Made by a program: the position numbers and the translations under genes. From the NCBI GenBank assembly GCA_051941275.1, contig JAVEBF010000087.1, positions 1-32,067 of the forward strand: a stretch of 32,067 bases of DNA, in the 5' to 3' direction. The stretch is from Dirinaria sp. TL-2023a (taxonomy: Eukaryota). This document shows positions 1 to 22,857 of this stretch, one piece after another; within the stretch, counting starts at the first letter, position 1; each line of letters starts with the position of its first letter. The notes beneath the pieces are model-generated. The model did no database searches and had not been told where the DNA came from. It worked only from the letters and a program-made list of their open reading frames with translations.

Positions 1-20
1 GAATGGGGGGAAGATGGTAC

Positions 21-1628
21 CGAGAGCCGGGGAGATGCGGAGGGATTCGAGCGTAGAATAGTGTAGTAGCGTGGTTTGCGAGGTGAGGTAGGTGGTGGAT
101 TGGGACGGGTGGTTGTGCTGCTGGTGCTGGTGCTGGTGCTGGTGCTGCTGGGCGAATTCGGACCGGAGAAGGGTTTGGAAGGTGGAGTTGGCGGAGAGGT
201 TGATCAGCTGGAAGCCGAGGACTGTGCCGGTAATGTCGATGTTTGTGAAGAGGATCTCGTCGAGACTTTGGGTGTACTGGTGGAGGGAGGGGGATATGGA
301 TGTTAGCTTTACCCGACGCAGTTCGTGGGTTGGGGGAGGGGAAGGATTCGGGAACTGAGTTGGCTTTACCTCCATCATGCTCATGTCACCCCTTTCAACC
401 GCTCTGTAGATACGCTCCGCTGGGCAGGAGTGGTTCTTCTGTGAATCAGGTCTTAGTAACAGTACGCTTGTCGCACTCTCGCTGAGACAAGTGGCTGCTA
501 TACTTCTCGTGCACCTTGGATGATGCGTAGGTTGAGCTTCTCCCATTCTGAAAGGAAGCTGTTCATCTGCCGCCTGAACTTGGTGGGCAGCACGTTGAAC
601 CATGCAGAAGTGAGTGGCTTGCCGAAGATGGCCGCTCCCATCAGATTGTCGTGGTGTTCGCTGAGCTTGATGATTTCGAGGAAGTCCTGTGCAACCCCTC
701 AGTACGTGTAGTCATGGCTGGATATATCTGAATTACTGACCGCTTCATCGAAGGCTTCGCCGTATATGGTCAAAGCGATTAAGCGTAGGGTTATCTGTTT
801 GGAGGCTTTCATCATATCCTCTACAAAGGCACCGTTGGGTTTTTGTGCAATCGGGTCCTTGGGCAGGTCGTCGAGCCAGTTATTGATATGCTTTGAGAAC
901 AGCGAAACCATGTTCGTGCTAACTTGAAAAGAAAACTCAGGGTCGAAATGTCTTCTCATCGACTTCCACTTCTGCCCATTTTGCAAGCCAATACATACTC
1001 CAAGAAGCCTAGACGGAAATGATTTAATACGGCCCTGGCTGTATCGAGCAAAGACGCTGGAAATCAAGCTTACCTGCCGAAATAGTCGCCAAAATTCAAA
1101 TTTGGGGGCTTGAAATGGTCTAGCATTGCACTTAACAATTCCGTTCAGGCCCACATTCACATAAGAAATCGGACCTTGCTCGGCTTTGCGCAGATAGTCT
1201 TGGAGCTGGTCGGATGAGAACAGGACCAACTCCTTGACAGATTCCATTTGAACCATATAAGGATCATCTCCTGCCAGTGTTCTCCCTTCCTGGGAGAGCT
1301 CTTGACTGTGAGCAGCTTAGCTTTGCGTGTTCCAGGATGGAGCTGGAGTCATCCGTACGCGTGGGTAAATCGCTTGAACCGTGTGTCACCCTTCAACTGC
1401 TTGATTCTCCCTCCATGTTCATTCTTAAAATTATCATTTCCCTTCATCCCCGTCACTATGTCTTAATCCCATAAGGGTTTGGATCTTTCTTACGCGAATA
1501 ACTTGAACCGCGCTGCGTGAAAACAGTCCAGCAAGAAGCAAACCAATTCCGATTGCTAGATAGAGCTGGGTTCCTGTCTGAATCGAGGGCACGATGGACA
1601 GAAACCAGATGCTATCTTCCGATCGCAT
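21..1628 (-). CDS. Cytochrome P450 monooxygenase, 3' end truncated by the window edge; resembles the TenA/ApdE pyridone-pathway P450 class
   Basis: Hand-spliced exons 1628-1494, 1423-1359, 1305-1175, 1119-1074, 1008-741, 686-504, 438-370 and 276-21, with GT..AG introns and consistent phases (intron 1 acceptor least certain). N-terminal hydrophobic anchor (LYLAIGIGLLLAGLF), C-helix WKSMRRHFDPEF, I-helix LDEILFTNIDITG (226-261), K-helix ExxR = ESLR (37-48). The heme Cys lies outside the window. Subfamily likeness is from recall, not a search. Confidence 0.88.
115..150 (-). repeat. (CAGCAC)n hexanucleotide microsatellite inside a P450 exon, encoding a Gln-His run
   Basis: Plus strand gtgctgctggtgctggtgctggtgctggtgctgctg; in the P450 frame it reads QQHQHQHQHQQH. 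Confidence 0.9.
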
Positions 1629-2343
1629 GATGAGTATTAAGACGACAGTGCACGGCTAATGAACAGACGTAGGAAAGAGCGTGAAAGCAATAAGCTATGC
1701 ACCACAGGTCGAACCTTTAATCGGGAGAGAAGGCTAAGAGGTAGGACGTGCTGAGCCTTCCTCCACTAGCCATCATGAATGAGGAGATAATTACTCGAAT
1801 CGACTTCCTCAGCGAACATTGACCGAGAAGGCCGAGACAGCGTCTCCGATCGATGTAATAAAGCGAGCCCCCCCACATAAACTAAAATCTCACTTCAGGC
1901 GTACCCGCACGGGATCTTTCTCTGAGTAGGCGTCGAGGGCAGAGGCTGATTTTCAGGGTCCGGTGGTGCCGTACAACGGTGCAAGGTACGAGTTGTACCT
2001 TTACTCGTACATGGCGCCTTCCATGCCGCCGTAGCTTTTCGGGTCGCTTCTATATCGTACACGTGGCTGTCTAGACGCCTTACGACCTTGCATCTGCGGT
2101 GAGACGGGTGGTTGCAGCTCGGAAGGATTTTCGTCGCATGTCATCACGCAATCAATTGCGCGCGTACAAACACGCAGGACCCCACGGATGATTGGATCGA
2201 TGCGACGATAGCTCAGGTTGGTGGTACCTCATGTATCTGCACATAGAATATGGAAGCGACGAGGAGAGCGGAGTAGTACGATACAAGTAGAGCAGCGAAG
2301 TCAATATTGTGCTAGCGCTCCTCAGATCGGCATACTCGTATTC

Positions 2344-2456: not shown

Positions 2457-2645
2457 AGGTGACCGCGATGTCGCGTCTCCTCAGCGCCCTCACCCTAAAA
2501 TAACCCTACAACGCAGTTCTCGTACTGTATTCATAACATCCACATGTAGATACTTGGACGCCTCGCCCCCCTCTCCCAACCCCTTTCAATTCTGGTCTCT
2601 GGACTCCACTGCCTGACTGATCACACGCTCACAACGTGACAACAG

Positions 2646-3855
2646 TCAATCATGATCCGGTGCAACCGCTTCCTTGACTTGCAGGGGCCCGCTAACCTCA
2701 TACACCAGTTTGACTCCCGATACCAGACCTTTCCGCACTCGATCGACACCGCCTCTGACCCCGGCCAGTCCACCCGTCTTCGTCTCGAGCGTGTGCGACA
2801 CAATCAATCCCTTGTCGAGCAATTCCTGCGCCACCTGAAACCACTTCTCGGCGAATTCGCGGTCTTGGGGTCTGGCCTCGCGCTCAAAGGGCCGTTGCCA
2901 CTTGACCGGCTTGTTGAAAATGGTGAACGCGATGATCCAGCTGGGTTTCACGCTCCGACGCGTGTGCGCCCGGATGGGAAATGGATCGAGTGCGACGTAT
3001 CGACCGCCTTTGCTGCCGATAGCATCGTAACACGTCTTCATCGACGACGTGTCCGTGATGCAGTCCAAGGCGTATTTTAAAGAGTTATCCGTGTATGCCC
3101 GGATGTCCTCTCCGCAACTGGAGGAGTGGTAGTCAAAAGCCTCGGCAGCTCCGAGTGACTTGGCGAGCTTGAACCGGCGCGGAGAGCATGTGACAACCGG
3201 TATCATGCCAGACCTGTGAGGGGGAAAAGGATTAGCATTGGAGAAGATGGTCTACCATTCACTCGCCTCGCCTTGACAAGGCAATGCCTGTCGAAACCCA
3301 ACTGCTTATTCCCACTTACGTCCGGATCATCTGGATGGCCAATGTCCCAGTGGCAGTTCCCCCGCCATGCACCAGAACGAAACCTGGCTGCGCAGCTTCC
3401 AGCCCTGGCCACGGTAGTTTCAGGGTGTTATAGAGCGCCATTCCTACCGTTGTCAGACCGACACCTAGTGATGCTGCCTCTTGGAAAGACATTGCTGGCG
3501 GTATCCTGAACACGAGATCTCCCGGCACCGCAAGGAATTCGGCAAAGGCTCCATTTTCAACTTCTTCAGGGTTGTTTCCAAACACGCAACCGCACACTCG
3601 GTCGCCAAGCGAAAGCTCTTGCTTGATAGCAGGGCCTACGGAGGTCACTTCCCCTGCAAAGTCACAGCCCAATGTGGCTCCTGGAGTTGGCGACAAATCT
3701 GCCGACTTCCCATCCACAGGATTAACCGCTACGCAAACGACTCGAACCAGAACCTCATCAATCTGAGGAGCTGGAATGGGGCACGAGGTGGCAAGCTCGA
3801 GCTTTCCAAGGCCCCGTATCTTGATCGCTTTTTGCTTTGTTGGTATCATAGACAT
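2646..3855 (-). CDS. Trans-acting enoyl reductase (LovC/TenC/ApdC family, zinc-free MDR), 367 aa
   Basis: Exons 3855-3320 and 3213-2646, intron 3319-3214 (GTAAGT..CACAG). Motifs [29 protein letters not shown] (NADPH-binding), [22 protein letters not shown]. Divergent from the PKS-NRPS. Confidence 0.95.
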
Positions 3856-4378
3856 TCTGATATATTTATGGATTCATATGAAAAGGTTCGCCTGGAAAGA
3901 AGCAGGGACGGATGTCTATTTTGAATTAATTAGGACTAGGACCTGCGTGAAAAGGATCCAAGTGCCCGGTAGTAGTTCAGCAGCCTACTCGCTCGGGATT
4001 TGCCAAAATGCCGGAGCTCATCTAGGCTTGACACATACGTTATAAAATCTGTTGAAAGCGTGTTACGCGAGCACGAAGGAATAATGCGATCCTCGACCCA
4101 TACTCACGTCAGCAAGCGAGGTCTACTGAGGCTGAAGTTGACCAGTCCAGCCGGAGGATTCGGTCTTTCCCTGCAAATGGCCGAATGTAACATATCAAAG
4201 CTAGGATCTTGAAAAATGTATACATAACCATCGGTCCCATAAGGCGTATGGAGACTTACTCTCCTTTGATATTTTTGATGCTATCAGTCTTCACCTTCTT
4301 TTTCATCCAGCAAACATGATTTAAATTCAGGCGGCCATACCTTTCTTTAGAGATTACTTTGAACAAGGTCATCCCATC
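3856..4378. promoter_or_regulatory. Divergent (bidirectional) promoter region shared by the trans-ER and the PKS-NRPS
   Basis: 523 bp between head-to-head start codons (3855 minus, 4379 plus). No specific binding site was established. Confidence 0.6.
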
Positions 4379-7300
4379 ATGGTCACTACCAAAGAGCCTA
4401 TTGCCATTGTTGGTTCTGCGTGTCGCTTGCCGGGTGGTTCTAGTTCCCCCTCAAAGTTATGGGACCTTCTACAGAGTCCTCGCGATATCTTGAGCGATTT
4501 TCCCAAGGAAAGATTAAATCTGTCTAGCTTTCACAACATAAATGGCGAACATCATGGCAGCACAGACGTCAAAAACAAGTCGTACATCTTATCAGAGGAT
4601 CCTCGCTTTTTCGACGCTTCGTTCTTCAATATCAACCCTAGGGAGGCCGACGGTATAGATCCACAGCAGCGTCTACTTCTGGAAACATGCTACGAAGCTT
4701 TGGAATCCGCTGGCTGTACGCTCGATCAGATACGTGGGTCTCTTACCTCAGTCTTCGTAGGTAGTATGACCAACGACTACTACGACATCCAAATCCGTGA
4801 CACGGAGACAATGCCAACGTACAGCATAACCGGTACCGCTCGGAGTTTTCTATCCAACCGTATCTCATACTTTTTCGACTTGAAAGGAGAATCTATGACT
4901 ATCGATACTGCGTGTTCGAGCTCGTTGGTTGCATTACATCAGGCTGTGCAAAGTATGCGTAACGGTATCTCTAATAATTCCATTGTGGCCGGATCAAATA
5001 TCCTCCTCGACCCTGGAACGTATATAGGAGAGTCTAAACTTCACATGCTCTCGCCTGATAATCGCTCTAAGATGTGGGATAAGTCTGCCAATGGCTATGC
5101 GCGAGGGGAAGGTGTAGCTGCCCTTTTCTTAAAACCTCTGAGCCTCGCGGTCCGAGACGGCGACTACGTCGAATGTCTCGTGCGAGAGACATACGTCAAC
5201 TCAGACGGCCGCACAAAGGGTATAACAATGCCTAGTGCCACAGCACAAGCAGCCTTAATTCGCCGCACATATAAAAATGCAGGATTAGACCCATTAGTCG
5301 ATCGCTGCCAGTATTTTGAGTGTCACGGAACCGGCACCCAAGCAGGGGATCCCCAGGAAGCACAAGCCATCCAAGAAGCTTTTTTTCCAACAGCCAGTAA
5401 TCAGCAATATCCCGATGACAAACTTTATGTCGGATCCATAAAAACTGTGTTGGGCCATACCGAGGGGTGTGCAGGCCTGGCAGGAGTCCTTAAAGCATCA
5501 TTAGCCCTACAAAACCAGACTATTCCGCCGAACTTGCATTTCAAGGAGCTAAGCCCTGCAGTAGCTCCGTATTACGGCAGCCTTCAGCTTGCCACAGATC
5601 CGACCCCGTGGCCAAAAACTCTTGGTACACCTTCAAGGGCAAGTGTCAACAGCTTTGGTCTGGGTGGAACGAATGCTCATGCCATCCTGGAAGCCTATCA
5701 ACGAGAAAATGAAGGAGGGTCCCACAAGTCCTGTTCCCCTGAGTCTGATCTGGAAGAACGCTTTGTGGGACCTTTGACATTTTCAGCTAAGACTAAATCG
5801 TCCCTCAATGCAACTGTACAAGAGTTCACGAATTTCATCAAGCTCAATCCTCACGTCGAATTAAAGGCTTTGACACATGTTCTATCAAGCAGAAGGAACG
5901 AATATAAAGTCAGGGCTTTCTTCTCCGGCGCAACGCGGCAGCGGCTTCTCGATTGCATGGGCAAGTATGTCGAAACACCGGAAGCTGGTGGCGACGAAGC
6001 GATAACGCAGCTGCTCAAGAGTCACCCAGAAGAGATCCCTGGTACGCTCGGCATCTTTACAGGCCAAGGCGCACAATGGGCGTCAATGGGCAGGCGTTTG
6101 ATAGTTCAATGTCCGCTGTTTCGCAAGTCAATTGAAGAATGTGAAAGCTCCTTGGCTACTCTTCCTGACCCTCCTTTATGGTCTTTGAAGCAGGAGCTCA
6201 TGGCTGCTAAAGAGAACTCGCGCATGGCTGAAGCTGCAATATCTCAACCACTGTGTACCGCCATTCAGGTCGCTCTGGTTGATTTACTTACAGCGGCTGG
6301 GATCAAACTGGACGCTGTAGTTGGCCATTCGTCGGGGGAGATCGCTGCAGCATACGCAGCTGGATTAATTTCCGCGCACGACGCAATACGGATCGCGTAC
6401 TATCGTGGTTTTCATGCGAAGCTCGCTCACGGCCTCAAAGGCGAATCCGGAGCAATGATGGCTGTCGGCCTGCCCATGGATAGCGCAGTGTCGTTTTGCT
6501 CGAGACGCTCGCTATCTGGACGCATAGGCGTTGCAGCAAGCAATGCTCCAGCGATTGTAACACTCTCAGGAGACTCGGCCGCCATTGATGAAGCCAAAGC
6601 GATTCTAGACGAGGAGAAGACTTTTGCAAGACTTCTCAATGTTGATACTGCGTATCATTCCCATCACATGGTACCTTGTGCTGAACCGTACTTAGCCTCT
6701 TTGAAGGCTTGCAACATCAAGGTCATGGCTCAACGGGAAGATTGCATCTGGATATCTAGCGTCCGTGGTGACATTGACCTTCTTGACCGCGACCTACATA
6801 TGCTATCGGGCCCTTATTGGGTCGATAACATGGTGAAACCGGTTCTTTTCTCGCAGGCGGTCGAGTGTTCACTGTGGAATGGTGGGCCGTATGATTTGGT
6901 ACTTGAAATTGGTCCTCACGCAGCGCTCAAGGGGCCCAGCCTGCAAACAATAAAACCAGCAACAGGGATCTCTTTACCCTACGTAGGTGCTCTAAAGAGA
7001 GGTGATGACGACGTTGAAGCATTCTCTAGCGCTATTGGCTATATCTGGTCACACCTCGGAAAATCTTTTGTCAATTTCGAGGGATATCGGAAAGCCTTCG
7101 AAGGTGCGGATTCAATTGAGCCCAAGATGCTGAAAGGGCTACCATCTTATGCATGGGACCACGAAAAGCTCCACTGGACTGAATCTCGCCTTACTCGAAA
7201 CTATCGTCTCAACACAGAAATTTCTCAGGAACTTCTGGGTCGACGGCTTCATGACGATTCTAAAAATGAATCACGCTGGCGAAACTTTCTGAAATTGAAC

Positions 7301-10300
7301 GAGCTGCCATGGCTGCGTGGCCATGAATTCCAAGGGCAAACTCTTTTCCCTGCTGCTGGCTACATCGCAATGGCACTTGAAGCTTCAAGGAAGCTTACAG
7401 ACCAACGCACTGTAAAGCTTATCGAGGTGCATGACTACGCCATACTCGGACCCTTAGTCATAGATGACAACTCATCAGGCGTGGAGACTATCTTCAGTGT
7501 CAGAGCTCCACATGGCAATTCGCGAGCCAAACAAGATGCCGTTATCTACTGCGAGTTTGATTGCTACGCTTGCCATGATGCGCTAGGTGGCTCTTTGATG
7601 AAGAAATGCATGGGTAAGCTACTCATCCATCTCGGTCAATCCTCGTCCGATGAGTTGCCCTCGCGAGTTCCAGGTCCATCAAGCGTTTTGCCTGTGGATA
7701 TGGAAAGGTTCACATCTTCAATTAAAGATGTTGGGCTGAATTATCAGGGCCTCTTCACAGGAATCAAATCATTGAAACGGACTATGGGCCATGCAACAGG
7801 ATCTGCAGCGTGGTCAGATGGCAGCTTCACGCAGGACTATCTGGTTCACCCAGCGTTCTTAGACAGCGGATTTCAGTCTTTATTTGCTGCCTTTAGCTCA
7901 CCTTCTAGCGGAGCGCTTTGGACGACATATCTTCCTGTCTCTATTCGTCGTATTGCTGTGAACCCTGGTGTAAATTTTTATTGCCCTCTAGGCGGGGTGA
8001 AGTTTGACGTCGATGCTTTCATCACTGACACAACCTTCAACTCATTTGTCGGTGACCTACATCTTTTTGATACCAATGGTAACGCTGGCATTCAAGTTGA
8101 AGGATTAGTTATGCGGTCGATCTCCGAGCCCCAAGCATTCAACGACCGTTTACTATTTACAGAGACTGTTTGGGGAGCAGATATCTCTTACAGCCTGGAA
8201 GGCCTAGAAGAGCCACGGGGTACGGACGGAGAAAATATTACTGAAAGATCTGGGCTCGCTTCTCTCAATGGATACATTGCACGAGTGGTCAGAAGGATTA
8301 CTTACAAATATCCGCAAGCAAAAATACTGGAGATTGGTACCGGCCTTGGAGATACAACCACATGTGTGTTGGACATGGTCAACCATGGATTTTCTTCTTA
8401 CGAGAAAGTAGGCGAAGAGATTGCTAAGCCACACGGCAAACTTTCCTTCCCTTCGCTTGATATAGGTAAAGACGTTGCTGATCAAGGTTTTACTCCTTAC
8501 TCCTACGACATTATCATTGCTTCCAACGCCTTTCGTAAAGCTTCGAATTTGGGTGACAAATTGCAGCATACAAGAACTCTCTTGAAGCCTGGTGGCTATC
8601 TGATTGTTTTAGACCTTACAGATGACCTTTCGTCCATGGATTGGGACGAACTCTTGCAGGCCAAAGCTTTCTCTGGTGTCGATAACGTTGTCCATTACAC
8701 ACCAGATTCTAGCAATGGCTGTTGCTCGGTAATTGTCTCTCAGGCTATTGACGATCGCTTCAACCTGATTCGCGATCCTCTTGCCTCTATTGCATCCATA
8801 TCGATGAAGGAACCCTTGCTGATCATTGGTGGAAGGACGTTGCTTATCGCTAGGCTGATCCGTGAAGCCAAGAAATTGCTAAGTCCATGGGGAAAGCAAA
8901 TCACCGTTGTCAAAACTGTCGATGATCTAAGCCAGCAACATCTAGCAACGAGAGCGTCGGTCATAAGCTTGACAGAGCTAGAAGGGCCTTTATTTGCAGA
9001 TACTATGACCACTGCTCGGTTGGAGACTTTGAAGTCACTTTTCAGTCAAGCTACCAACGTCCTTTGGGCCACTGCGGGTCGATTGTCACAGAACCCTCTG
9101 TCTAATATGACTGTTGGACTTGGTCGTGCTCTGTTGATTGAGATACCCCAACTGAACTTGCAATTTCTAGACAGCGGTATGGCTGCTCACCCTAGCTCTA
9201 GGACAGTCGTCGAATCATTCCTCCGACTCCTACTCCACAAGTCTCAAGCATTCAGTAAATATGACATGCTCTGGACAACAGAACCCGAGATTGCTCTCGA
9301 TGGTGATCAAGTGCTTATTCCTCGTGTTGTCATTGACAAGGCGAGAAATGACAGATTCAATGCTTCGCATCGGCTTGTTACCCACGAAGTTGATGCCAAA
9401 GCGGATCCTGTCGTTGTATCCTCTTTCAAAGACTCGCTTACTATGCGGACTATTAACTTAGTTGACCGTCAGAGTGATGCTGAATATACGCATATAGACA
9501 CAGCCTACTCGATATCCATACCCGCAAAGGATCGAGGGGCGCCTGTTCTGAGCCTTGGCACTAAGCATGGAACTAAAGAGAAAGTGCTTGCAATATCAGG
9601 GTCGCATTCTTCGGCGGTCGATGTTCCTTCTAATGAAGCATTTACTTTGAAGCAAGATGAGCAGAGCCTTAGCCCAGAGAACCTAAAAGCCATTGCCAAT
9701 CAGCTGTTCATAACTGCGCTCCTATCCGAAATCCCTGCTCATTGCTCGGTGCTATTTTATGAGCCAGATGAATCGCTCGCAGCAGCGCTCACGAAAGACA
9801 TGCGGTGGCAGGAGCGAGAGCTTTTCTTTTCTTCATCGAAGCAACTTCCTTTGCCAAAGGCATGGATTCGAATCCATCCACAGATTTCCGATCGGGCTTT
9901 AAAGGATGTCTTGCCAAGCGGTATAAGATACCTCGTTGATTTTTCGAGCGTTCACGACGAAGCGGCAACCTTGCTGAAGAATAGTCGCTCTGTCTGCTCA
10001 CTCGACACAACATTTCTGATGAGAAATTGCCAAAAGCTTCTTTCAGATGCCTACTATGCCGTCCAACACAGAGACAAATTGCAACCGCAGAAAGCTGACG
10101 TCGAAACCATCATACCAGCGCAGAATCTAGCTGGAGCTCCTGTGGCATCAAACTTGTATCCAGAAATTGTGGACTGGACGCATTCTAATCACTTCAACGT
10201 TGCTGTTCAGCCCCTGGAGCCATCTCATCTATTCTCTGGCAGCAAAACTTACTTCCTTGTTGGTTTGACTGGGGACTTAGGGCGGTCACTTTGCCGTTAT

Positions 10301-13300
10301 ATGATCAGCTATGGAGCACGATACTTTGCTCTTGCGAGTCGGAAAGCAGAAGTTGATCTTTTGTGGCTGGCAGAAATGCGGAAAAAGGGCGCCACTATCA
10401 AGATATTTAAAATGGACGTCACTGACAAGGACTCGGTTCGTGCAATTCACGCTACAATCAGTGACACAATGCCACCAATAGGGGGCGTTTGCAATGGAGC
10501 TTTGATTCTCGAAGACAAGTTATTTGTTAACAACAGTGCTGATGCTATGAATAAATCGTTGGGCCCCAAAGTCACTGGCTCAAAGCATTTGGACGAGATC
10601 TTCGCTGACAACTCACTTGATTTTTTTGTCCTCTTCTCATCGACAGCCAGTGTCTTTGGTAATGCTGGGCAGTCGAATTACCACGCAGCTAATCTTTTCA
10701 TGACCAGCCTAGTGGCCCAACGCAGGTCGAAGGGGCTCGCTGCATCAGTGATGAGTATTGGCATGATTACCGATCTTGGAGTTGTCCAAAGAGCAGGTCA
10801 AATGCTTGAAGATCACTTGCGGAGGCTCTTCTTCCTACCGTTATCGGAATCGGATGTTCACTACTTATTTACGGAGGCTGTCTTGGCAAGTCCTCCAAAC
10901 TCGAATTGCAGCTCAGACATTATCATGGGCATTGAGCTGTTCAGGGGCAACGCCGAATCAAAGGTTAAGCCACCATGGTATATGAATCCACGCTTTTCTC
11001 ATCTCGTGCTCGGAAGCGACGATAGAGAAGAGCAAACACAAGTGGCATCATCAGCCTTGCCTGTCAAACAGCAATTAGAGAGTGCGGAGTCCGAACAGTC
11101 GGCGATAGCGATACTTCAAGACTCTTTCTCTTCGAAACTCAAGTCCATGTTGCAACTCACGTCGAGCGCCGTCAATGTCAATACGTCTCTACTCGAGCTC
11201 GGTTGCGATTCCTTACTTGCGGTTGAAATTAGAACGTGGTTCCTGAAAGAGATCCAAGTGGACATTCCGGTGCTCAAAATAATCGGCGGATCTTCCGTAG
11301 CCGAGATATGCCTTGATGCTACAAGAAAGTATATTGCATCCAAGCCATTTAATGCTCAAGAGGAACCCCCTGTCAACGAGGTTGCTCTGCAGAAGGAGAA
11401 TAATGTCCGGCAGGGGGCCTCTGACACCACTCAGCTCGACGAATCTGATAGCTCTCAAGTATCAGACTTAGATTCTCAGCTAAACGTCGAGGACGTCAAT
11501 TGGACATCGGCAATGACTACACCTAACAACGAACCTTTCGCGACACTAGGTTCGAAATTGGGTCCCTTGGGCGACGAGCAATTCAAGAGAGTGGAGAAGA
11601 TGTCTTATGCCCAGTCGAGAATGTGGTTTGTCGGTAAATTTATGAAAGATCCAACAGCATGTAAGTTTCCTCTTGCGAGCTTTTTTCATGGGTTCTCCTC
11701 CTGCGGCGGAGCTTGAGAGCTTTGGAATGTACTTTACCATTGTCCACTCTTGAGATGTGCCTTCCAACTCACAATTGTGCCCTTACAAAGAGATATACTA
11801 ATTGGGAAATTATGAAGTCAACGTTACCATTTCCTATAATATCACTGGCGAGTTACAACCACGATTATTTCACCGGGCTTTGGAAACGGTGGTTTCTCAC
11901 CATGAATCCTTACGGACATGCTACTTCTCAAAGCCGGACAATGGAGAACTCATGCAAGGAGTGTTGACAATACCACCAAGAGGCTACTTTAAGCATATCC
12001 AGACTGAAGAAGAAAAAGCAATCAAACGGGAGTTTGACTCCCTGAACAATAAAGTGTGGAAGCTAGAAGACGGACACTCTTTTGGAGTGACCTTAATTAC
12101 CCGAAAACCTGAATCGCACACACTTATGTTCGGCTATCACCACATACTTATGGATGGCTTTAGTTGGTACCTGTTCTTGCGGGATCTTAACCTTGCCTAT
12201 CAAATGAGGCCCCTGGAGCCTGTAATCAAAGAATACTCGGATTTCACCCTTGAGCAGACTCGTTCGGTGGAAGAAGGAGAGCTTGAAAATCAAATCGAGT
12301 TCTGGAAGAACGAATTTCAAGAAATACCGGGGCCTTTGCCACTGCTTCCCTTCGCTCGTGTCAAAAAGCGCAAGGCTTTAAAAACCTACGACTCCAACAC
12401 TGCAAGCGCTATTATTGGCAAGGACTTAGTGACCAAGATCAAGAATGCTGGCCAGGCGCTTCGGGTAACCCCCTTCCATTTCCACCTTACCGTGGTCCAA
12501 GCCTTACTTTCCAGCATCCTGGACGTCCAAGACATCTGTATCGGTGTCACTGATGCCAATCGTGCTGACGAGAGTACCGCAAACACAATTGGCTTCTTTT
12601 TGAATCTCCTGCCGTTACGCTTCCAAGTCAACAAGGATGATCTATTTTCCGACGTGCTCGAGAAGACTTCAAATAAGGTCTTTTCAGCCTTGGCTAACTC
12701 GAGCGTCCCCTTTGATTTGCTTCTTGACAGACTCAGCGTGCCCAGATCCTCCACCCACAGTCCCTTATTTCAGGTGGCGCTCAATTATCGCATGGGAGAT
12801 GTAGCCCAGACCATACTAGGGGATTGTCAACTTGACATGAATTCCTACGCTGATGCTAAAAGCCAATTCGATCTCGCTTTCAGCGTAACACAGACCGCAG
12901 AAGGTGGTAGTATGTTACACATTACCTCGCTCAGCCATCTCTATACGCTCGAATCGTCGACGTCGCTTATGAATATGTACGTCTCCTTGCTCGAGAGCTT
13001 TTCGGCAGATACATCCTTGCAAATTCGAGAAGGATCTCTTTTCGATTCCCTAGAAGCTGAGCAAACGATCAACATTGGTCGAGGTGCTCGACTCAGCTAC
13101 GGGCTTTCGGCCACGTTGTCGGAACGGTTCGACATTATCTCGGAGAAGTATCCGGGTGATATTGCCATCAAGGACAGCTTTGGAGAATGGAGTTATTCTC
13201 GTCTGGCTAAACGGGCCAACAGCATTGCGGCTGCCGTACTTGACAAAGGCGTTGTTGCAGGATCGAGGGTCGCTGTCGTATGTCAACCATCGATGGACAC

Positions 13301-16052
13301 TATTGCTTGTATGTTGGGAATCCTCCGCATCGGCTGCGTTTATGTGCCGCTAGATGTGAGCCTCCCACAAGCTCGGCATGCCGCCATCCTGGCTCCTTGC
13401 GAGCCAAGTTTGATACTCTGCCAAAATTCAAATCGGGACTCAGTTTCTGAACTGGCTAGCGCCAGGACAAATATAGTGAATATTTCTGAGCTGAGGGACG
13501 TCCAGGCTAAGAAGGTTCACAATAGAGCCCAGCCGAACTCGCCAGCGTTCTTATTGTACACGAGTGGATCAACCGGTACACCAAAAGGGATTCTTCTTTC
13601 ACAAGCCGGTTTTGCTAACTTCCTCGCTGCTAAAGCTGACATGCTCTCAAGAAATGACAAAGAAGTAGTTTTGCAACAAAGCTCTTACGGGTTCGACATG
13701 TCTATAACGCAAACGTTCTATGCTCTTGCGTTTGGGAATGGAGGAACCCTTGTAATACCGCCACAAACCGCCCGAGGTGATCCAATTGAGATTGCCAAAC
13801 TGATGCTCGAGGCAAAAGTCACCTTGACTATTGCTACACCTTCCGAATATCTCATGATACTAAGGTATGGCAGAGAATATCTTGATCAGTATCCGTCGTG
13901 GCGTCATGCATGCGCTGGGGGTGAGACCGTCACAAAGCAACTCAAGCGAGAACTTCGCCTGCTAAACCAACCCCAACTTACCCTCATTGACTTCTATGGG
14001 CCTACTGAAATTTCAGCTGCCGCTGCAATGGGCATAGTTTCAACGGACGCAGATGAGAGCAATGATAGTGACGCTTATACATCGGTTGGGAAGACTGCTG
14101 CTAATACTTCTATCTATATCCTGAATGAAGACAGCAACCCTGTTCCCATTGGGTATCCAGGAGAGATTTGTGTCGGTGGTGCTGGTGTTGCTATTGGCTA
14201 CTTAGATCTTCCGGGATTGAACAAGTCAAAATTTGTTCCGGACCGATTTGCAAGCCCTGAGGACGTCGCTAAAGGATGGACAAAAATGTATAAGACTGGC
14301 GATCGAGGCAAGCTCCAGCTCGACGGTTCTCTGGTTTTTATGGGCAGAATTGGCAATGATACTCAAATCAAACTCCGTGGTCTGCGGATCGAGCTAGACG
14401 ATGTCGCCAATACTTTACTTCAGGCTTCACAGGGATTACTTTTGGATGCTATCGTAACAGTACGCGGTGATCCTGAGTTCCTTGTTGCCCACGTCGTATT
14501 TGCGCCAGGAAAGAGTACGATCGACGATGAGCTACAACACCTTGTTCAGAACCTACCATTGCCACAGTACATGTGTCCGGCCATGATAGTCCCATTGGAG
14601 CGTCTGCCAACTACGCAAAATGGCAAGATCGACAGGAGAGCAGTTGAGGTACTTCCACTGCCAGCCCGGCAGTCATCCTTCCAAGCACATCAACCTCTTA
14701 CGCTTGAGCAAGGTGAACTCAAGTTGGTTTGGGCAAACGTGCTCAAGCAGCCGGTTGAATCTCTCAGGGCAGGTCCGGAGACCGACTTCTTCATGATTGG
14801 TGGAAATTCACTCTTACTCGCTAAATTACAAGGAGCAATCAAGGAACATATTGGAGTCTCTGTATCATTGAGAGAACTTTATGGACTGAGCACTTTGGCA
14901 AGAATGACGGCGCGAATTGCTGCAGGTCGAGATGAACGGGCTTTGCAAGAGACCTCGATTGACTGGCACTTCGAGACTGCCTTATCAGAGTCACTCTACG
15001 TCGGCAAGTCTCAGTCACAGCGCCAACGGAAATTCAAGTGCTCTAATCAAGAAGTCCTTCTTACCGGCTCCACCTCGTTCCTTGGCTCCTACATCCTCAC
15101 AGAACTAGTAAAAGACCACAGCGTCAGCAAGATCCACTGTATCGCTGTTCCGGAGGATCGAAGTAGCCTTCCACAATCAGATAAAATAACAGCATACACT
15201 GGGCGACTCCTAGAACCAAACCTCGGTCTTTCCGGAGCCCAATCTTCCATGCTCGAGCAAAACATCGACCTGATAATTCACGCCGGCGCGAACGGTCACT
15301 GCCTCAACAATTACTCCTCCCTTAAAGTACCAAACTTTGACTCAACCAAGTCGCTAGCCTCCCTCGCCCTCCCCCGTAAAATCCCCGTCCATTACATCTC
15401 CTCGAACCGCGTTACGCTCCTCTCCGGCTCAGCATCTCTGCCTCCCGTTTCAATGGCAGCCTACCCGCCAGCTACGGACGGGTCCGAAGGTTTCACCGCC
15501 ACTAAATGGGCCAGCGAGCGCTACCTCGAAAATGTGGCGCGAGAGACCGGGCTGCCGGTATGGGTGCACCGACCCTGTGCGGTCATAGGGGATAAGGCGC
15601 CCAGCGAAGATGCACTGAACGCGTTGCTCCGCTACTCGATCCTCATGCGCGCAGTACCCCGTTTCGAAAGCTTTGCGGGTTTCTTCGATTTCAAGGATGT
15701 TGGCGCCGTGGCGGGGGATATCGTTCGCGAAGCTGTCACCGAAAATCACTTTTCCTCTTCCTCTTCCTTCTCCTCCTCCTCATCCTCATCGAAGACTGAG
15801 CATGCATCCTCCCTGCGCTTCCTGCACCATTCCAGTGGGACAAAAGTGCCGGTGCATGGATTGGGGCAGTATATGGCGGAGTTGGAAGGCGCGGCCATTG
15901 ACACTATTGCATTGAAAGATTGGCTCGCCAAGGCGAGAGAATTGGGGATTGAGGATTTGATTGTCACGTATTTGGAAGCGATCGTTGAACGAGGGGATAC
16001 CATTACCTTTCCGTACTTGGGGGAGAGAGATGGTGGCGGGGAAAAGATATAG
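4379..16052 (+). CDS. Iterative HR-PKS-NRPS hybrid, ~3838 aa: KS-AT-DH-(inactive cMT)-KR-ACP-C-A-T-R*
   Basis: Exons 4379-11660 and 11818-16052; intron 11661-11817 (GTAAGT..ACTAAT..AAG, phase 1, restores DPTAFNVT). KS DTACSSS (Cys 4913), HGTGT, GHTEG; AT GHSSG (6323), AYHSHHM; DH HEFQGQTLFP (7322), HPAFLD; KR VGLTGDLG, GQSNYHAAN; ACP GCDSL (11201); C HHILMDG (12138); A YTSGSTGTPKG, YGPTE, YKTGD, NGKID; T GGNSL (14799); terminal SDR-like LLTGSTSFLG..FTATK. Confidence 0.97.
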
Positions 16053-17444
16053 ACTGTGGATTTCTGAAGGCGTTTTGGTTTCTTTTAGACTTGTGATATT
16101 CTTTGACACGAGGACACTAACGATGATGAACATAGACTGATCATTTTCAAACTTTCCTATCAGCTTCTATTGACTATCTCACTTGGCAGATTGAGACTGT
16201 GTCGTTTCTAGACGGTCTATTTGTCTTACAAGCAAAATTCCAATCTCTGGTTCAACTATGTAAATCTTGCGCAGTGATGGTGAGCCTCAGAAACTTACGC
16301 GAAGTTAGTGACGCATCTGCACTTTTCGACAAATGATGGCTAGTATCAGTACCAGTATCAGTATCGGAGAAACCTTCGAGATCTTGATGCGTTATGTATC
16401 TCTTTTTTGGGCACGTTCTAACAAGAATTTATACACTGACCTCTTCGAGCACTTCGTCAGTATGCTTATCTAGAAGTGCGTTCAATGCTTCACGGTTTTA
16501 GCATTGTCAACAGTCTTCAATTGGGTTTGGGTCTCATCGGCGCCAAAGACGACTACCTAGCAAAGCAGAAAATGCATCAAGAATACCACCCCTGACGTCA
16601 AGAATCTCCTCTATCTATGCGACTGATCCTTGGAGTTGGCGAGTAGGCAAACCAGTGCTTCCAAAAACGGGGTATGAATGCGACGTTGAAGCACTTGCGA
16701 AAATCAGAGGAGATGCTTAAGATGCTTGAGATACCCATCTCATATACAACGTGATATACACCCTAAACACAGTCAGCTATATCGGGGAGACTTATGGGTC
16801 ACTGAGTAGTGAGAACAAAAGGCTTATATACGCATACGAGATAGCAATGGCGTTGGCCTTAAGTGCACACCGGAATTAGCAGCAATGACCTCCGCGGCAT
16901 CACCTGAAGGAACAACAGGAACGTCGCTGTATGTATGCCCAGGCATCTAGACACTTTCTCCTAATCAAGCTACTAGTGGGCACTGCAATGCCGGCACGCG
17001 TCACCATGCATAGACTAACAAATACCGCAGCATCCCTCCATGTATAAAGTTGCAGTACGAGTCTTGGAAAAGCAAGTCACGTAATCATTTATTCCTTTAG
17101 GCTTTCGAATGTCTCAGGTTAGTGGATGGCACAGATTTGCGGTAACGCACTTTCTCCCAAGGTATGATCTGTTGTGCTGATGGATTTGATTGTGAGCACA
17201 ACATCATACTGAGTGAACGGCCACTAAAGAATTAGTCTACTCCTACTAACGTGCCTCATGATAAGACTAAGGGAGCTTCGCATTCTAGAAGCTCATCATA
17301 AAATCGCATATGTTCAGGACATCCTCGGCGGGGATCCTCGGTGTAGCAAAAGTCCCCACGTGCCTTGATCGAACTCCCGTTGCTGCATCGTCTTATATTT
17401 ACTTTAATAAAATCGTGCCCCCAGAAACGTCCGTTACACAAGGG

Positions 17445-17469
17445 TTTTTTTTTTTTTTAAAAAAAAAAA
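17445..17469. repeat. Adjacent T14-A11 homopolymer tract (self-complementary) 3 nt before the formyltransferase ATG
   Basis: ggg-T14(17445-17458)-A11(17459-17469)-gcg-ATG(17473). Confidence 0.85.
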
Positions 17470-17472
17470 GCG

Positions 17473-18375
17473 ATGAGTCCATCAAGCCAAAAAAAGCGAG
17501 CGATCCTCTTCACGCGACGGCCAGCTTCGGTCACTTCGCGAATCATCGACAGCCTCAACAAGCGAGGCTACGATGTCCCACTGCTCGTCTGCGCCCCAGG
17601 GCCCAACGGCTCCCTATCGCCCTCCTCAATCCCCAGTCTCGGCACCGTAATCAGCGGAGTCCTGGACGAGATCGACCACCCGCCCGCCATACTCTGCGTG
17701 TTTAACACCAAGCTCCTAGAACAAATCTACATCGGCCTGGATCCGGATCTGTCACTCGTGTACGGCTTCGCTTACCCGATCACCAAGAAGATGTTAAGCT
17801 GCCGCGCCCCCTTCGTGAATTACCATCCTGCGCCTCTTCCGCGTATGCGAGGTCCTGCTCCCTTTGCGCGCATGGTGCTCGATCACAGCATAGAACTGAT
17901 TGCCTCTTGGCACTATATGGTTGCGGAAGTGGACCACGGCCCTCTAATCCACACCTGTGACCTGACCGTGTCGTCGTGCGAGCGAGAGAAGCTCACGGGC
18001 GGGGATGTCGCGAAAGCGGGGGAAGATGTGTTTTTCGCTTCTTTCGATACCTGCCTCGACTTGGTCGAGAGCGGGTTTGCTGGTACGAAACAAGACCATA
18101 CTGATTCTGTAGGGTACGGTGGGACACTGCTGTCGGATGAAGAAAGGACGATTCGGGGTGATATGACCAAGGAAGAGGTTCTGCGCCTGCATCGAGCGTT
18201 GACAGGTACGACGCAGAAACCGCTACTTCAGTTCGATGGCCGCTTAAATCATGTGGTTCGAGTGTCTGAAGTTGAGGAAAATGGTCTTGCTTTGGGCTCG
18301 CAGAAGCGGGTTGGAGCTCATATCATCCAGTCGTTCTGGGGAGGGGCACTGAAAATGGGAATTCGAAATGTTTGA
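17473..18375 (+). CDS. Stand-alone N10-formyl-THF-dependent formyltransferase (FMT-like), 300 aa, intronless
   Basis: PDLSLVYGFAYPI; VNYHPAPLPRMRGPAP matches the NxHPSxLPxxRG motif (Asn 17818, His 17824); SWHYMVAEVDHGPLI matches TxHxxxxxxDxGP (Asp 17932). The Asn/His/Asp triad is intact. C-terminal EVLRLHRAL resembles the FMT C-terminal segment. Confidence 0.88.
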   Translation: MSPSSQKKRAILFTRRPASVTSRIIDSLNKRGYDVPLLVCAPGPNGSLSPSSIPSLGTVISGVLDEIDHPPAILCVFNTKLLEQIYIGLDPDLSLVYGFAYPITKKMLSCRAPFVNYHPAPLPRMRGPAPFARMVLDHSIELIASWHYMVAEVDHGPLIHTCDLTVSSCEREKLTGGDVAKAGEDVFFASFDTCLDLVESGFAGTKQDHTDSVGYGGTLLSDEERTIRGDMTKEEVLRLHRALTGTTQKPLLQFDGRLNHVVRVSEVEENGLALGSQKRVGAHIIQSFWGGALKMGIRNV

Positions 18376-19314
18376 AGATAGGTCTCCTCGGAAAAGCTAC
18401 CGATATGTCATCAGCAAGTTTCTCCCGAATGTCTATCCCCTCGAGTCCAAAGCAATTTAACGTCCTCCATAAATTTTTCAATTTTTTTTTTTGGCAGCAC
18501 ATTATAACAGAAATACTCCAAATAATCCCATCTCGCCCATTCAAATCCCGCACACAAGTGCGCCTTTTTAACCAAACAACCTAAATTGGGAGTGCGGCTT
18601 ACTAAGGTAAGATACTACACACTTTCCGCACAGGCGAATGCTCCTTTTCTCAAATTCCAACACTCCTCGAAGTCTATCCACCCCCCCCACCTTCCATCTC
18701 CCATCTCGCATCTCCAACCTAAATCTCCAATCCACAAAACATCAAACAATCCAAATCCCTGCTCACCATCCTTTACGCAAGTACTCGCGCCGCTGGAAAC
18801 GAATGGATATATTTCACCACGCTTCGAATCCGGTACTATCTTGCTGTAAGGTAAAACACCCCACGCCAACCTCCCCAATCCAAAATCCCCATTGGCCATC
18901 CTCAAAACCCAACAATCCCCTCACTCATGATCACCTCATTCATTATCTCCCCCCCTCTTCAAATCCCTCCCTGAAGCTAACCTGCAAAACTGAGAAACAA
19001 CGAGTACAGTAACACTAAACACCCTCAATCATTTACTCTTAGTTTCGAATATATCCTTTGACCATGCAGAGTCAACTCACAGTAATATTCCCTCCAAAAG
19101 CGCAATACCCTCATCTAACCTCCTCTTTTATCCCAATCATTCTTTTTCTATGAATTCTCAACTTTGAATGGGCGCTTTATGGGATTTGATCGTGTCTTTG
19201 GTTGAGAGTATCGAAATCGAAATGGAGAGGAGGGTTGCTGTTTTAAAGGGGGTTGCATAAGTAAAGTCATAGAGCGCCAGGGATTGGAGGTGGGTTCTTT
19301 CGAGGAGGAAGAGC

Positions 19315-19333
19315 TTTTTTTTTTTTTTTTTTT
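19315..19333. repeat. T19 homopolymer
   Basis: Read directly from the sequence. Confidence 0.85.
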
Positions 19334-21229
19334 GGTTTTAAATTTGGACTTTGGTGGGTATCAGGTTTGAGGACTTCAATCTCATACTTCCATTTCACGC
19401 TTCTCGATGCTATATCAGTTACGTTTTCCTCGTCTGTTTCATTTCCGCATCATCCCTCGTGAGATACCACTCAAGCCCAACAAACCTGAGATGAGAAGCA
19501 TCGAAATCATCTACAAATCGGACTTTTGCCCGCGTTACCAATGCCCCTGACGAATATGATCTCGACACATCTCTCGCAAACAAATAAGGTTTCAATAGAT
19601 CAAGAAATATATCATCCTTTAATCGATTTTGATAACTCTACAATATAACCCACCTCTCTGACATTCCGCCATTACGACAGGGACTACACCAAGATACTTG
19701 CAAGCGTAGTAAGGAGCGCGGGGATTGTGTACAGAAGTCTTTATTCTCCATGTCTTAGTTGTTTCTTTGGCAACTTTGAGGTTCCGAGTATCGGTGCGTA
19801 CATCCAAGTCTTTCAAGATTTTTGTGGGCAGAATATGCTGTGAATGCCATCATGGAGGCCGAAAGGGAAACGGTTTTGTACTATATTTTGCAGAATATGA
19901 ACGACATGACGGTGTGCATTACCTTATACTCACATTTCTCATCGTAAAATGTTTTTCTTCGCACATGGATCTCGAGGAGGGAAATTGTGTTGATCAATCT
20001 TCACAGGGATTTCGTCTGTGTGGGATCTGAAGAGCCGTGATTGGACCAGTGGCTCTTGATCTAGATCGGAGGATTAACTCTCCGAACACTTTCTATGTCC
20101 AAATGTGGGCTTAGAAGGAAGACTAGGCTTGCTCTTGGTGGCAGAGTGTATTAACACTTATGATTCACTGGAAATGCATGTTTCTCTCCTGGCGGTACCT
20201 CAGGCGGCATCGCAGAATTTCAGCTCAGAATTCTTCATGAAGGATCGACTGTAGTGCAAGGTGCAGCTATGGTTTCTGGATATTCCTGGAAATTCGGTTA
20301 ATGGCTGGGCAGAAATTCGTTCTGGATAGATCTTCTATAAGGCTTCACTCGTCACAATAGAAAGATATATCCTTTAATGAACTGCTGAATGTTATTCAAA
20401 TTCCATCTCCCTTCTCAATCAGAGCCATTTCTTGTGATTGAGCCATGTTGTGAACGGAGCAACTCAAGTCCGATTTTCCACGATCACGATCCATATATGC
20501 GGTTAACACAGCGAAATTCATTGTTCAGCAACACTTTCTTTAATGCATATAACCCGGCCCTTATCCTGATCTTCCGGCAACTAGGTGTCCGGTAGAGGAA
20601 CTCGTTGACGATTGATTCATCTTCTGAAATAGACAATCCCTGATCATTAGCTTCTCTCAATACTATAAAGTAACTCAGCTGGCTAGCCGACTCGCTTTCT
20701 GATATCACACGTTAGCTAGACATGTCCACCGCATGAGGCAAACCTTTCTTGTGAAATGCGCATTGTTTCGAGGAACCACAACGCTAGCCGAGCCGCGTTC
20801 TGATATCGTGACCTCGGTCAAGTTATCATCATACCAATCGGATGGACCTTCAGCCGACTCAATTCTGCTATCAGTCATCTTTCACGTGGCCCAGATCGCT
20901 GGTCCCTGGCTCTCGGATCCAATTTCCGAGGTATTTTTCAATAGAAAGACCAAGGTGTTGATGCTGCACAGCCGCTTAGAACAAAGAAAAAATGTGGGCC
21001 CACCCTTGACATAATAGAACAATGAAAATAGCGCGATTGCTAAGCGAGATTGCCTAGCACAAAGCATTTGTTCTTGAGTTCCCCTCTTGAACTTTCCTTT
21101 CTTCTTTCTTTTCTCTCACCAACCTACTGTACTCCCAGGATTCTGCTCGTCTTCGAAGCTTGTTTCTTGCCCTACCAACTTGCTTCTCGCTTTACCAGCT
21201 TGTTTCTCACCTCATCATCATTTACAGCC

Positions 21230-22857
21230 ATGGCCATGGCAGCGATGGCTATGCTCGCTCAGTGGGTGTTTGGTGGGTTTTTCAACGGGGCTGCTGAGGT
21301 CCCCGCCTCCGTGCAGTTGAGGCCAACCTTGGCCTCACTGTATCGTGAAGCGCGGGGATCTCCAGCCCCCGCGACTCTTTCATACCAGCTTCAGCTGGTA
21401 CCAGGAGATGTCAGAAGCGGAGGTGGTCTATGTAAGCAACCAACTCCCACCGTCACTGAATTCCAAACAATCGATCGGCTCCCTTGCTCTTTTTGATTTG
21501 ATGTGTTTGCATCGTAGCTGCATCTCAGTTCTACTTTGATCGTGTCTTATGCTTAGTGCCTCCGTAGCAATTCCTGTCATCGTGCTTTTCCATAGTAATT
21601 AGCTAATGAACTTTAGTAGCGACCACAGACTACACCTGCTTGCTCTTCGCGTGGCTTCTCTTCTTGCTCTCGGTCGGTCTCTGTCTCTTCGCCTGTTGCA
21701 GCCAAGTACTCCAGGCGACGAAAGCTTCGCTCGTTCAATTCATCAAGGCGTTGCACGAAACCATCGGAACGCTGAACGAGACGATCGGAACGCTCCACCG
21801 GACAATCGAGGAAAACGTCTCCAAGATCGCCGAGCTGACCAAGACATCCGACTCGCTGCTCGACCAAGCCAACGATGCGAAGGTAGAAACGCGAAGGTAC
21901 GAGACATTGCTCTACGAGAACAAGGCCAAGATGGATTTTCACATGAAAGAAAATCTCATCTTGAGGAGCACCATCTTCGTACCCGTTGGCACCTTCAACG
22001 TCGACATTCAATTTAAGCGAGATCGCACGAGCGCCTCCAGCACCATCCCTTCTGGCACGATCTCTTCCGACGCTGACCCTTCCGACACCGTCTCTTCCGG
22101 CACTATCCACTCCGACATCGTCTCTTCCGGCGCTATCCCTTCTGGCACCAACCCCTCCGGCACCATTCCTTCCGACACCATTTCCTCGGCCACCGCTGCA
22201 GAAAAGCTACAGGAAGACCTCCCTCAAAAGGTGCAGGACGACCTGCCGCAGCATTCCGAAACGGTCGAGGCCGCGGCGCCGAAGAAGGGCCGCAACTGGC
22301 GCCGAAGGCAGAACAAGCGCGCGAGGAGGCCCGAGCCGGACGAGACGCCCGTGGAGCCTGACAACAAGAACGCCGAAGACCAGCCACGGACTGGGCTCTC
22401 TGCGTGGGCCTCCTTCCAAGCCACATCCGATCGGGAGCAAGCCGCGAGAAAGCAGAAAGCCGCCGAACAACTCGCCCTCCGAAAGGCAGAAGAGGCCCAA
22501 ACAGGTGTCCGGGACGAACCCGAGCTACCTGATTTCAAGGAGACCTGGAAACAGGTCAAAGTGAACTCAGGCCAGCGGAGGGTGGTCGGTGTTGGGAAAG
22601 GCCAGGAGGACGGCGGAGACAAGCCACGCACTGGCGTCTCCGCCTGGAACTCCTTTCAGGCTACGTCGGGTCGAGAGGAAGCTGCGAGGAGGCAGCAAGC
22701 CGCCCAGCAATCCGCGCTTCGAAAGGCAGAAGAAGCCCGAACTGGTGTCAAGCACGAGCCTCAACTACCTGAATTCAAGGAGACTTGGAGGAAGGTGAAG
22801 GTTGACTCGAACCAGCGAAGGGTTGTCGGTGTTGCCAAAGATCAACCTTCGAAGTAG
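21230..22857 (+). CDS. Hypothetical ~480-aa protein: TM segment, coiled coil, pentapeptide repeats, basic patch, two 80-aa C-terminal repeats
   Basis: Exon 21230-21431, intron 21432-21616 (GTAAGC..GCTAAT..TAG, phase 1), exon 21617-22857. Long, GC3-rich open frame. Hydrophobic LLFAWLLFLLSVGLCLFACC; basic PKKGRNWRRRQNKRARR. Confidence 0.75.
22042..22191 (+). repeat. Ten degenerate 15-bp coding tandem repeats (TIPSG/TISSD-type pentapeptides)
   Basis: accatccct tctggc / acgatctct tccgac / gctgaccct tccgac / accgtctct tccggc and so on, with an exact 15-nt period. Confidence 0.9.
22378..22840 (+). repeat. Two diverged 240-bp (80-aa) tandem coding repeats
   Basis: DQPRTGLSAWASFQATS..FKETWKQVKV..RRVVGVGK (from 22378) versus DKPRTGVSAWNSFQATS..FKETWRKVKV..RRVVGVAK (from 22618). 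Confidence 0.92.

Follow-up and report, generated by a model that had tools for sequence, protein, structure and literature searches.

The window analysed here is the whole of contig JAVEBF010000087.1 from the fungus Dirinaria sp. TL-2023a, 32,067 bases read on its forward strand, and our subject is an intronless gene in it that encodes a formyltransferase of 300 amino acids (aa) and stands beside a hybrid polyketide synthase-nonribosomal peptide synthetase (PKS-NRPS). Judged from profile scores and domain layout, the protein is neither of the two housekeeping formyltransferases, that is, neither the mitochondrial methionyl-tRNA formyltransferase Fmt1 nor the glycinamide ribonucleotide (GAR) transformylase Ade8/PurN. 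We lean towards the explanation that it belongs to a rare clade and serves the adjacent PKS-NRPS pathway as an accessory enzyme. The fold and the chemistry are known; for a function that is predicted, the new part is the uncharacterised eukaryotic clade and the unprecedented setting.

Active site, fold and class of the enzyme

17473..18375, + strand: formyltransferase gene, intronless, 300 aa, ATG start, an uninterrupted open reading frame (ORF)
17818..17826, + strand: codons Asn116-Tyr117-His118 of the catalytic motif VNYHPAPLPRMRG, with an SLLP-type folate loop, placed by alignment to Fmt/PurN
17932..17934, + strand: codon of the catalytic Asp154 (EVDHGP), placed by alignment to the Asp column of Fmt
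17443..17470, + strand: T-run and then A-run directly before the formyltransferase ATG, a 5' leader or promoter by direct reading

Homologues align end to end with the predicted protein, one of them (P0002) over residues 1-300, and because of this full-length agreement the gene is taken to be intronless. The original prediction had described a gene without introns among neighbours that mostly have them, and the homologue alignment together with the splice joints of the neighbours, given below, bears this out. In the alignment, the motif VNYHP, with Asn116 (17818-17820) and His118 (17824-17826), and the motif EVDHGP, with Asp154 (17932-17934), match the Asn, His and Asp columns of solved Fmt and PurN. 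The triad had been reported as intact, and N116, H118 and D154 were indeed invariant in 23 of 23 aligned relatives, as were P123 and G127. Because the triad is invariant and is accompanied by the folate loop, we argue that genuine formyl transfer from 10-formyltetrahydrofolate (10-fTHF) is the predicted activity, and we infer a paralogue-like, catalytically competent enzyme that depends on 10-fTHF. The net charge of the C-terminal domain ranges from -8 to +7 over the 23 sequences and from -3 to +7 in the 19 sequences of the clade that holds the window protein.

Three other motifs, LLVCAPGP (residues 37-44), GFAYPI (98-103) and GFAGTKQ (201-207), had been read as recalling actinobacterial stand-alone formyltransferases. 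They are present, and their columns are partly conserved, with G43 invariant in alignment A2 and F99, G201, G204 and Q207 kept in at least 90% of the sequences in alignment A1. These columns are typical of the wider Fmt-like group, and by the alignments the motifs are features of that group and not specifically actinobacterial signatures, so that their presence was upheld and their actinobacterial specificity was not.

The match to Pfam Formyl_trans_N (PF00551) covered residues 89-168 and reached 27.2 bits, just above the gathering score of 26.1, which is marginal when taken alone. Relatives of the protein score 29.5-46.6 bits on this model, and the profile scan gave no match to Formyl_trans_C in the 300 aa. 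An AlphaFold2 model built on the 23 relatives had a mean pLDDT of 91.8 and consisted of two domains, an N-terminal domain of about residues 1-205 and a C-terminal beta-barrel of about residues 250-300 (251-299 in the model). Its first Rossmann strand is formed by residues 8-14, in agreement with the earlier reading of a Rossmann-like fold that starts at about residue 9 with no clear presequence. Foldseek placed E. coli Fmt at the top (1fmt, E 7e-16, TM 0.69), VIA-align gave a Z of 23.6 to B. anthracis Fmt with a root-mean-square deviation of 3.6 over 279 residues, and phmmer against PDB sequences likewise ranked Fmt first (3tqq, E 1e-4). The VIA-align runners-up were the formyltransferase domain of ArnA (Z 23.1), the hydrolase domain of 10-formyl-THF dehydrogenase (FDH; 21.9) and sugar N-formyltransferases (19-22), and all of the matches span roughly residues 5-300. 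Chains of the LgrA F domain were absent among the matches listed by Foldseek and VIA-align. On the model, the fold class is certain to be the two-domain Fmt/ArnA type, and the model, together with the best 27 relatives, all of 341 aa or less, sustains the earlier description of a stand-alone gene of the formyltransferase fold. The acceptor is not readable from the fold, because Fmt, ArnA, the FDH hydrolase domain and the sugar N-formyltransferases all fall at Z 19-24.

The closeness of these scores could be taken to mean that the protein is not a transferase in vivo and that it hydrolyses 10-fTHF, as does the N-terminal domain of FDH, or serves as a binding or self-protection protein. The FDH hydrolase domain matches nearly as well as Fmt and uses the same triad. 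However, most characterised members of the formyltransferase fold are transferases, and domain scans revealed no aldehyde-dehydrogenase partner domain or gene in the formyltransferase or in the ORFs of the window. We regard this possibility as improbable.

Since Fmt comes first in both the sequence and the fold comparisons, and the two-domain architecture, the triad and an Fmt-like linker motif are shared with it, the gene might also be suspected of encoding a divergent mitochondrial Fmt1 of the fungus. The scores speak strongly against this. On the NCBIfam fmt model (TIGR00460) the protein obtained 40.4 bits over residues 89-272, some 160 bits below the cut-off of 201.5, whereas true Fmt proteins from the same search obtained 239-296 bits. 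In the fold model, the Rossmann strand from residue 8 would leave no room for a presequence, the fold scores are tied with those of ArnA and the FDH hydrolase domain, and in the tree described below the protein is split from the Fmt-type group at 99/100. Moreover, an exhaustive phmmer search of all lengths over 1.84 billion representative proteins returned 312 relatives at E<=1e-3, 27 at E<=1e-10 and merely 15 clusters at E<=1e-30; because Fmt1 would yield many more strong matches, the protein is not the universal fungal Fmt1. An identity with Fmt1 is thus extremely unlikely. As for PurN/GAR transformylase, the model TIGR00639 gave 15.3 bits against a cut-off of 150.1, and the predicted structure has an extra C-terminal domain compared with the single-domain PurN/Ade8 of about 200 aa.

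Distribution, phylogeny and origin

None of the best 27 relatives in the all-lengths search was fused to other domains. The named close members are limited to a lichen fungus and a bdelloid rotifer: Coniocarpon cinnabarinum has a homologue of 37% identity, the Coniocarpon records being KAL9056564.1 and KAL9085076.1, and Rotaria sp. Silwood1 has two distinct annotated homologues (P0062/P0200 and P0070), the Rotaria records being CAF3847496.1 and CAF3628563.1. Members of the eukaryotic clade are as low as 27% identical to the window formyltransferase. A profile search with alignment A1, in which 8000 candidates were scored, contributed few further relatives.

The main tree, of 64 rows, was calculated with IQ-TREE under the LG+C20 model, and its branch supports are ultrafast bootstrap and SH-aLRT values; fungal Fmt1 was not among the rows. 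A FastTree of 129 rows was restricted to sequences of 240-360 aa after removal of redundant members of clusters. Twenty tree rows are labelled fungal, with direct evidence for three of them, namely the window, Coniocarpon and a metagenome locus (L001) that is described below. In the 64-row tree, the presumed fungal clade is supported at 100/99, and P0024 and one Rotaria protein form a pair that is sister to it (100/97). The next joining branch is an unnamed metagenome protein (100/98), followed by two small groups, rotiferan or of unknown origin, in a weakly supported order (40/22). The second Rotaria homologue is placed in an intermediate group. A split of 93/92 separates the bacterial stand-alone clade and the Fmt-type sequences from the eukaryotic and metagenome groups; the bacterial stand-alone clade, composed of Thermoleophilia and Chloroflexia metagenome-assembled genomes (MAGs) and Glycomyces, has 98/97, and the Fmt-type group has 99/100.

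The gene had been described in the original prediction as bacterial-looking and perhaps horizontally acquired. On the tree, the bacterial stand-alone formyltransferases, mostly from Thermoleophilia MAGs and Glycomyces, lie between canonical Fmt and the window clade, an arrangement that gives weak support to horizontal transfer. Actinomycetota account for most of the nearest prokaryotic proteins, and this part of the claim stood; in the ESM-Atlas, used as a lead only, the nearest clusters are bacterial and Actinomycetota are commonest among them. On the fmt model the bacterial stand-alone proteins reach 94-119 bits. All of the five genomes checked, from Thermoleophilia and related soil MAGs, contain such a protein in addition to another that matches Fmt better.

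If the gene had recently been taken up from an actinobacterium, or if it were bacterial contamination, its lack of introns and the mostly actinomycetotal stand-alone enzymes among the nearest prokaryotic relatives would be accounted for. However, the identity of the window formyltransferase to the bacterial relatives is 22-25% (23% for Glycomyces rhizosphaerae), and the E-values of 2e-9 to 2e-10 are no better than the 4.5e-9 to sub-threshold Fmt-like proteins. The GC content of 0.556 and the GC3 of 0.62 are inside the range of the neighbours (0.575 and 0.68 in the exon of an enoyl reductase, ER), the protein lies within a deep eukaryotic clade supported at 100/98, and intron-bearing fungal genes are found on the same 32-kb contig. 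Because of the low identity, the E-values, the local composition and the deep eukaryotic clade, a recent transfer appears unlikely, and the claimed actinobacterial kinship has a weak basis; an actinobacterial donor in the recent past, or a contaminant, is a very improbable source of this gene. An ancient transfer is possible, with the rotifer direction either way, and the two Rotaria homologues look like an inter-kingdom transfer into or out of rotifers when judged by their places in the tree.

The neighbouring assembly line and a possible role in its pathway

1..2001, - strand: cytochrome P450 cut off by the contig end, six or more introns (weak Pfam p450 match, six GT..AG joints, RNA-contig cover to about 2001)
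2646..3873, - strand: trans-acting ER (ADH_N and ADH_zinc_N by Pfam), with one intron at about 3214-3320 (RNA joint 3213/3321, ends CT..CG)
4325..16052, + strand: hybrid PKS-NRPS, whole (Pfam, translation)
4325-11716, + strand: PKS part, KS-AT-DH-cMT-KR-ACP (Pfam)
about 11717-11801, + strand: frame break or intron of the PKS-NRPS (the frame ends at 11716 and resumes at 11802)
11802-16052, + strand: NRPS part, C-A-T-R (Pfam)

From left to right, the contig presents the P450, the trans-ER, the PKS-NRPS and the formyltransferase, and the Pfam domains at 4325..16052 confirm that the formyltransferase stands beside a PKS-NRPS, as had been stated. Its start lies 1.4 kb past the PKS-NRPS stop, and it is the outermost candidate member of the cluster. 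Domain scans of ORFs showed no recognisable gene in 16053-17472 or 18376-21043, and there was no amino-acid N-hydroxylase or siderophore NRPS domain among 13 ORFs of at least 150 aa and 66 further ORFs of at least 60 aa.

A second locus of the family was read on the metagenome contig L001, which also bears a fragment of a Fung_rhodopsin domain and on which the family member is 33% identical. The set at 1060-6983 comprises the formyltransferase homologue (+), a stand-alone condensation-domain (C) gene (-) and a gene for a 1138-aa adenylation-thiolation (A-T) protein (+); the homologue is tail to tail with the C gene, which is in turn divergent from the A-T gene. The 1138-aa protein has 500 N-terminal residues without a family, followed by A-T, and its A domain is only 25% identical to that of the window. 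NRPS-type genes therefore adjoin the formyltransferase in two of the two family loci read, and the machineries are unrelated. In a fungal genome, NRPS-type genes are a small fraction, and because they are rare we consider two chance adjacencies unlikely, which is a general-knowledge estimate and not a computation. As an observation of its own, the L001 set has the appearance of a compact orphan small NRPS system on a fungal-looking contig.

In the PKS-NRPS of the window there is just one AT and one ACP, and residue 24 of the frame is the first of the KS. In the R domain the motif is GFTATKW (15300-15340, P0204), with Phe at the position of the catalytic Tyr of reductive R domains. We take R domains of this kind to belong to the Dieckmann type, which is redox-inactive and releases products as tetramic acids, and the motif suggests non-reductive Dieckmann release to a tetramic acid. 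The nearest A domain in the PDB is that of PsoA; the readable pocket positions (M, T, C, A and A, assigned by the specificity code) differ from those of PsoA. The R domain also contains a serine-run insert, SSSSSFSSSSSSS, at 15742-15807, which in the RNA contigs of a related lichen has 69 letters instead of 66.

In the explanation towards which we lean, the PKS-NRPS, the trans-ER and the P450 would release an acyl-tetramic acid or a pyridone-type product. By means of its Asn116/His118/Asp154 site, the formyltransferase would transfer a formyl group from 10-fTHF to a nucleophile of the assembly line. That the gene is a member of this pathway seems to us somewhat more probable than not. If it is, the acceptor would be an amine, an assignment that we make with modest confidence; it may be a further amine, carried by the amino-acid unit or by a precursor, and in NRPS-only relatives it may be a carrier-bound aminoacyl amine, as if the F domain of LgrA acted in trans. 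A thiol of coenzyme A (CoA) or of the carrier arm is a possible but doubtful acceptor that is proposed by analogy, and the formyl thioester would then be a C1 building block, as with LctF of lactacystin. The original prediction had proposed that the amino-acid precursor or the product is formylated, and it did not take a thiol acceptor into account. Any other acceptor is rather unlikely.

Several points weigh against such a role. Alpha-N-formylation is incompatible with the use of the alpha-amine by the C domain; because this domain consumes the alpha-amine, an N-formyl product could arise only by way of another amine or of a precursor that is already formylated, and the readable A-domain pocket is without the acidic residue that would presumably be expected for Lys or Orn. 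The PKS is without an extra loading AT-ACP pair, unlike LctA. The formyltransferase is at the cluster edge, with gaps of 1.4 kb and 2.7 kb, and no promoter words were common to it and the ER-PKS and P450-ER intergenic regions above the level of five control regions. The adjacency was read at two loci, so that a conserved synteny is putative. The bacterial context points in the same direction. At 36 bacterial loci (L004-L039), where 469 neighbour ORFs were clustered after an ORF calling that is crude for high-GC DNA, the representative neighbour ORFs that were scanned included neither NRPS nor PKS and were cyclase/AAA/TPR regulators, transporters and similar, and no neighbour was kept beyond 9-10 of the 36 loci, the 10-locus set being an antisense artefact. 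Because these loci show neither NRPS/PKS genes among those neighbours nor a conserved neighbour, a link to natural products is not inherent in the wider family.

The RNA data bear on both sides of the question. The RNA runs with look-alike sequence are all labelled lichen metagenome, and the contigs come from one lichen sample; they are 90-97% alike to the window, which points to a relative as their source and not to this strain. They cover the spliced P450 (six joints), the spliced ER (one joint) and much of the PKS-NRPS. Inside the formyltransferase, the bin 17343-18009 is covered in one of three runs, the bin 18010-18676, which holds the 3' end of the gene, has no RNA cover, and the intergenic bins 16676-17342 and 18677-20000 have none either. 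The cover of the formyltransferase thus consists of contigs of one run, from a relative and without a splice mark, and it lends weak support to expression of the gene.

Some of these observations would be explained if the gene were a bystander, a formyltransferase paralogue with another one-carbon or amine-formylation task that is unrelated to the PKS-NRPS. Its position at the outer edge with long gene-free gaps on both sides, the lack of a promoter motif in common with the cluster and the variable, non-biosynthetic neighbourhoods of the bacterial relatives are all in keeping with this. However, the distant family member at L001 again adjoins NRPS genes, and of a different type, and the rarity and patchy distribution of the family are more in line with accessory metabolism than with a core function. 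We hold a bystander to be possible but, on the whole, unlikely.

The right part of the contig includes the following features.

21610-22857: 415-aa frame, GC-rich (0.60), no Pfam family
23816-26318, - strand: ABC-F type ATPase (ABC_tran, ABC_tran_Xtn) with several introns

To the right of the gap there are a repeat protein, the intron-rich ABC-F gene, an unknown gene and an M35 peptidase, none of which is a typical cluster gene. The ABC-F gene is probably a housekeeping gene; ABC-F proteins can protect ribosomes. The 415-aa frame has a coiled-coil-like N-terminal part, short Ser/Thr-Gly-Thr-Ile repeats and two long near-identical repeats (PRTG.SAW.SFQATS...KETW..VKV). A strongly C-rich and G-poor tract without recognisable coding content occupies 18600-19000 (GC skew -0.18 over 18001-19000).

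Comparison with known systems and implications

The precedents that we found are bacterial (LgrA, the siderophore enzymes and LctF) or molluscan. LctF of the lactacystin cluster in Streptomyces lactacystinicus transfers the formyl group from 10-fTHF to CoA to form formyl-CoA, and the formyl group then primes the PKS via a dedicated AT1-ACP1 pair (PMC11730586). The likeness to the window lies in a stand-alone Fmt-like gene beside a PKS/NRPS hybrid and a P450, the product of the LctF pathway being a gamma-lactam (PMC11730586). LctF differs in that it is bacterial, has a CoA thiol as its acceptor and works with the AT1-ACP1 loading pair, whereas the fungal PKS-NRPS has no such pair. The two are likened here by description and setting.

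Arguing by analogy, one could suppose that the whole clade is a eukaryotic counterpart of LctF that makes formyl-CoA or a formyl-S-carrier from 10-fTHF. The C1 unit would then prime the highly reducing PKS-NRPS, or a formyl donor would be handed to the stand-alone C domain, and NRPS-type genes would have accompanied the family in a patchy spread through lichen fungi and into bdelloid rotifers. We consider this supposition unlikely; if it were true, it would describe a route for carbon from folate to the assembly line that is new to fungi.

Formylation of carrier-bound substrates offers a second comparison. Molluscs possess an NRPS of the Fmt-A-T-R type (FmtATR, for bursatellin; PMC11869996). 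The F domain of LgrA (linear gramicidin) and the molluscan FmtATR resemble the window protein in their Fmt-type fold, the same triad and the NRPS setting. Both act on the carrier-bound aminoacyl amine, and FmtATR is a eukaryotic example of such chemistry. They differ in being N-terminal domains fused to A-T, whereas the window formyltransferase is a free-standing protein.

In bacterial siderophore clusters, trans-acting formyltransferases are encoded downstream of NRPS genes (ornibactin, malleobactin and pyoverdine PvdF; PMC8949500). As in the window, these are stand-alone genes next to NRPS genes; they differ in that all are bacterial and in that the window is without an N-hydroxylase gene. 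CchA and Rft are likewise trans-acting siderophore formyltransferases, and the siderophore enzymes act on N-hydroxy-ornithine and travel with an N-hydroxylase. Closest in build are proteins such as those of the Thermoleophilia and Chloroflexia MAGs and WP_387980712.1 of Glycomyces, which are stand-alone, two-domain proteins of 275-295 aa with sub-threshold Fmt scores. These bacterial 'formyltransferase family proteins' are uncharacterised and differ from the window protein in their identity of 22-25% and their lack of NRPS/PKS neighbours.

In titles and the opening parts of abstracts, and with most subscription journals outside the search, no account emerged of a stand-alone formyltransferase encoded in a fungal PKS-NRPS or NRPS cluster, nor of formyl transfer from folate in the making of fungal polyketides or non-ribosomal peptides. 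The word 'formyl' occurs 0 times in the published bdelloid paper, and in the accessible part of the Aspergillus arachidicola paper (PMC5845213) the sole mention of a formyltransferase is the AICAR formyltransferase in a gene ontology table.

If the gene is a bystander, it is just an uncharacterised formyltransferase paralogue. If the explanation that we prefer is true, the enzyme would represent new tailoring or priming chemistry for the genome mining of fungi, and its gene would mark out a group of orphan lichen clusters. The finding would be relevant, too, to how biosynthetic genes have moved between bacteria, fungi and rotifers.

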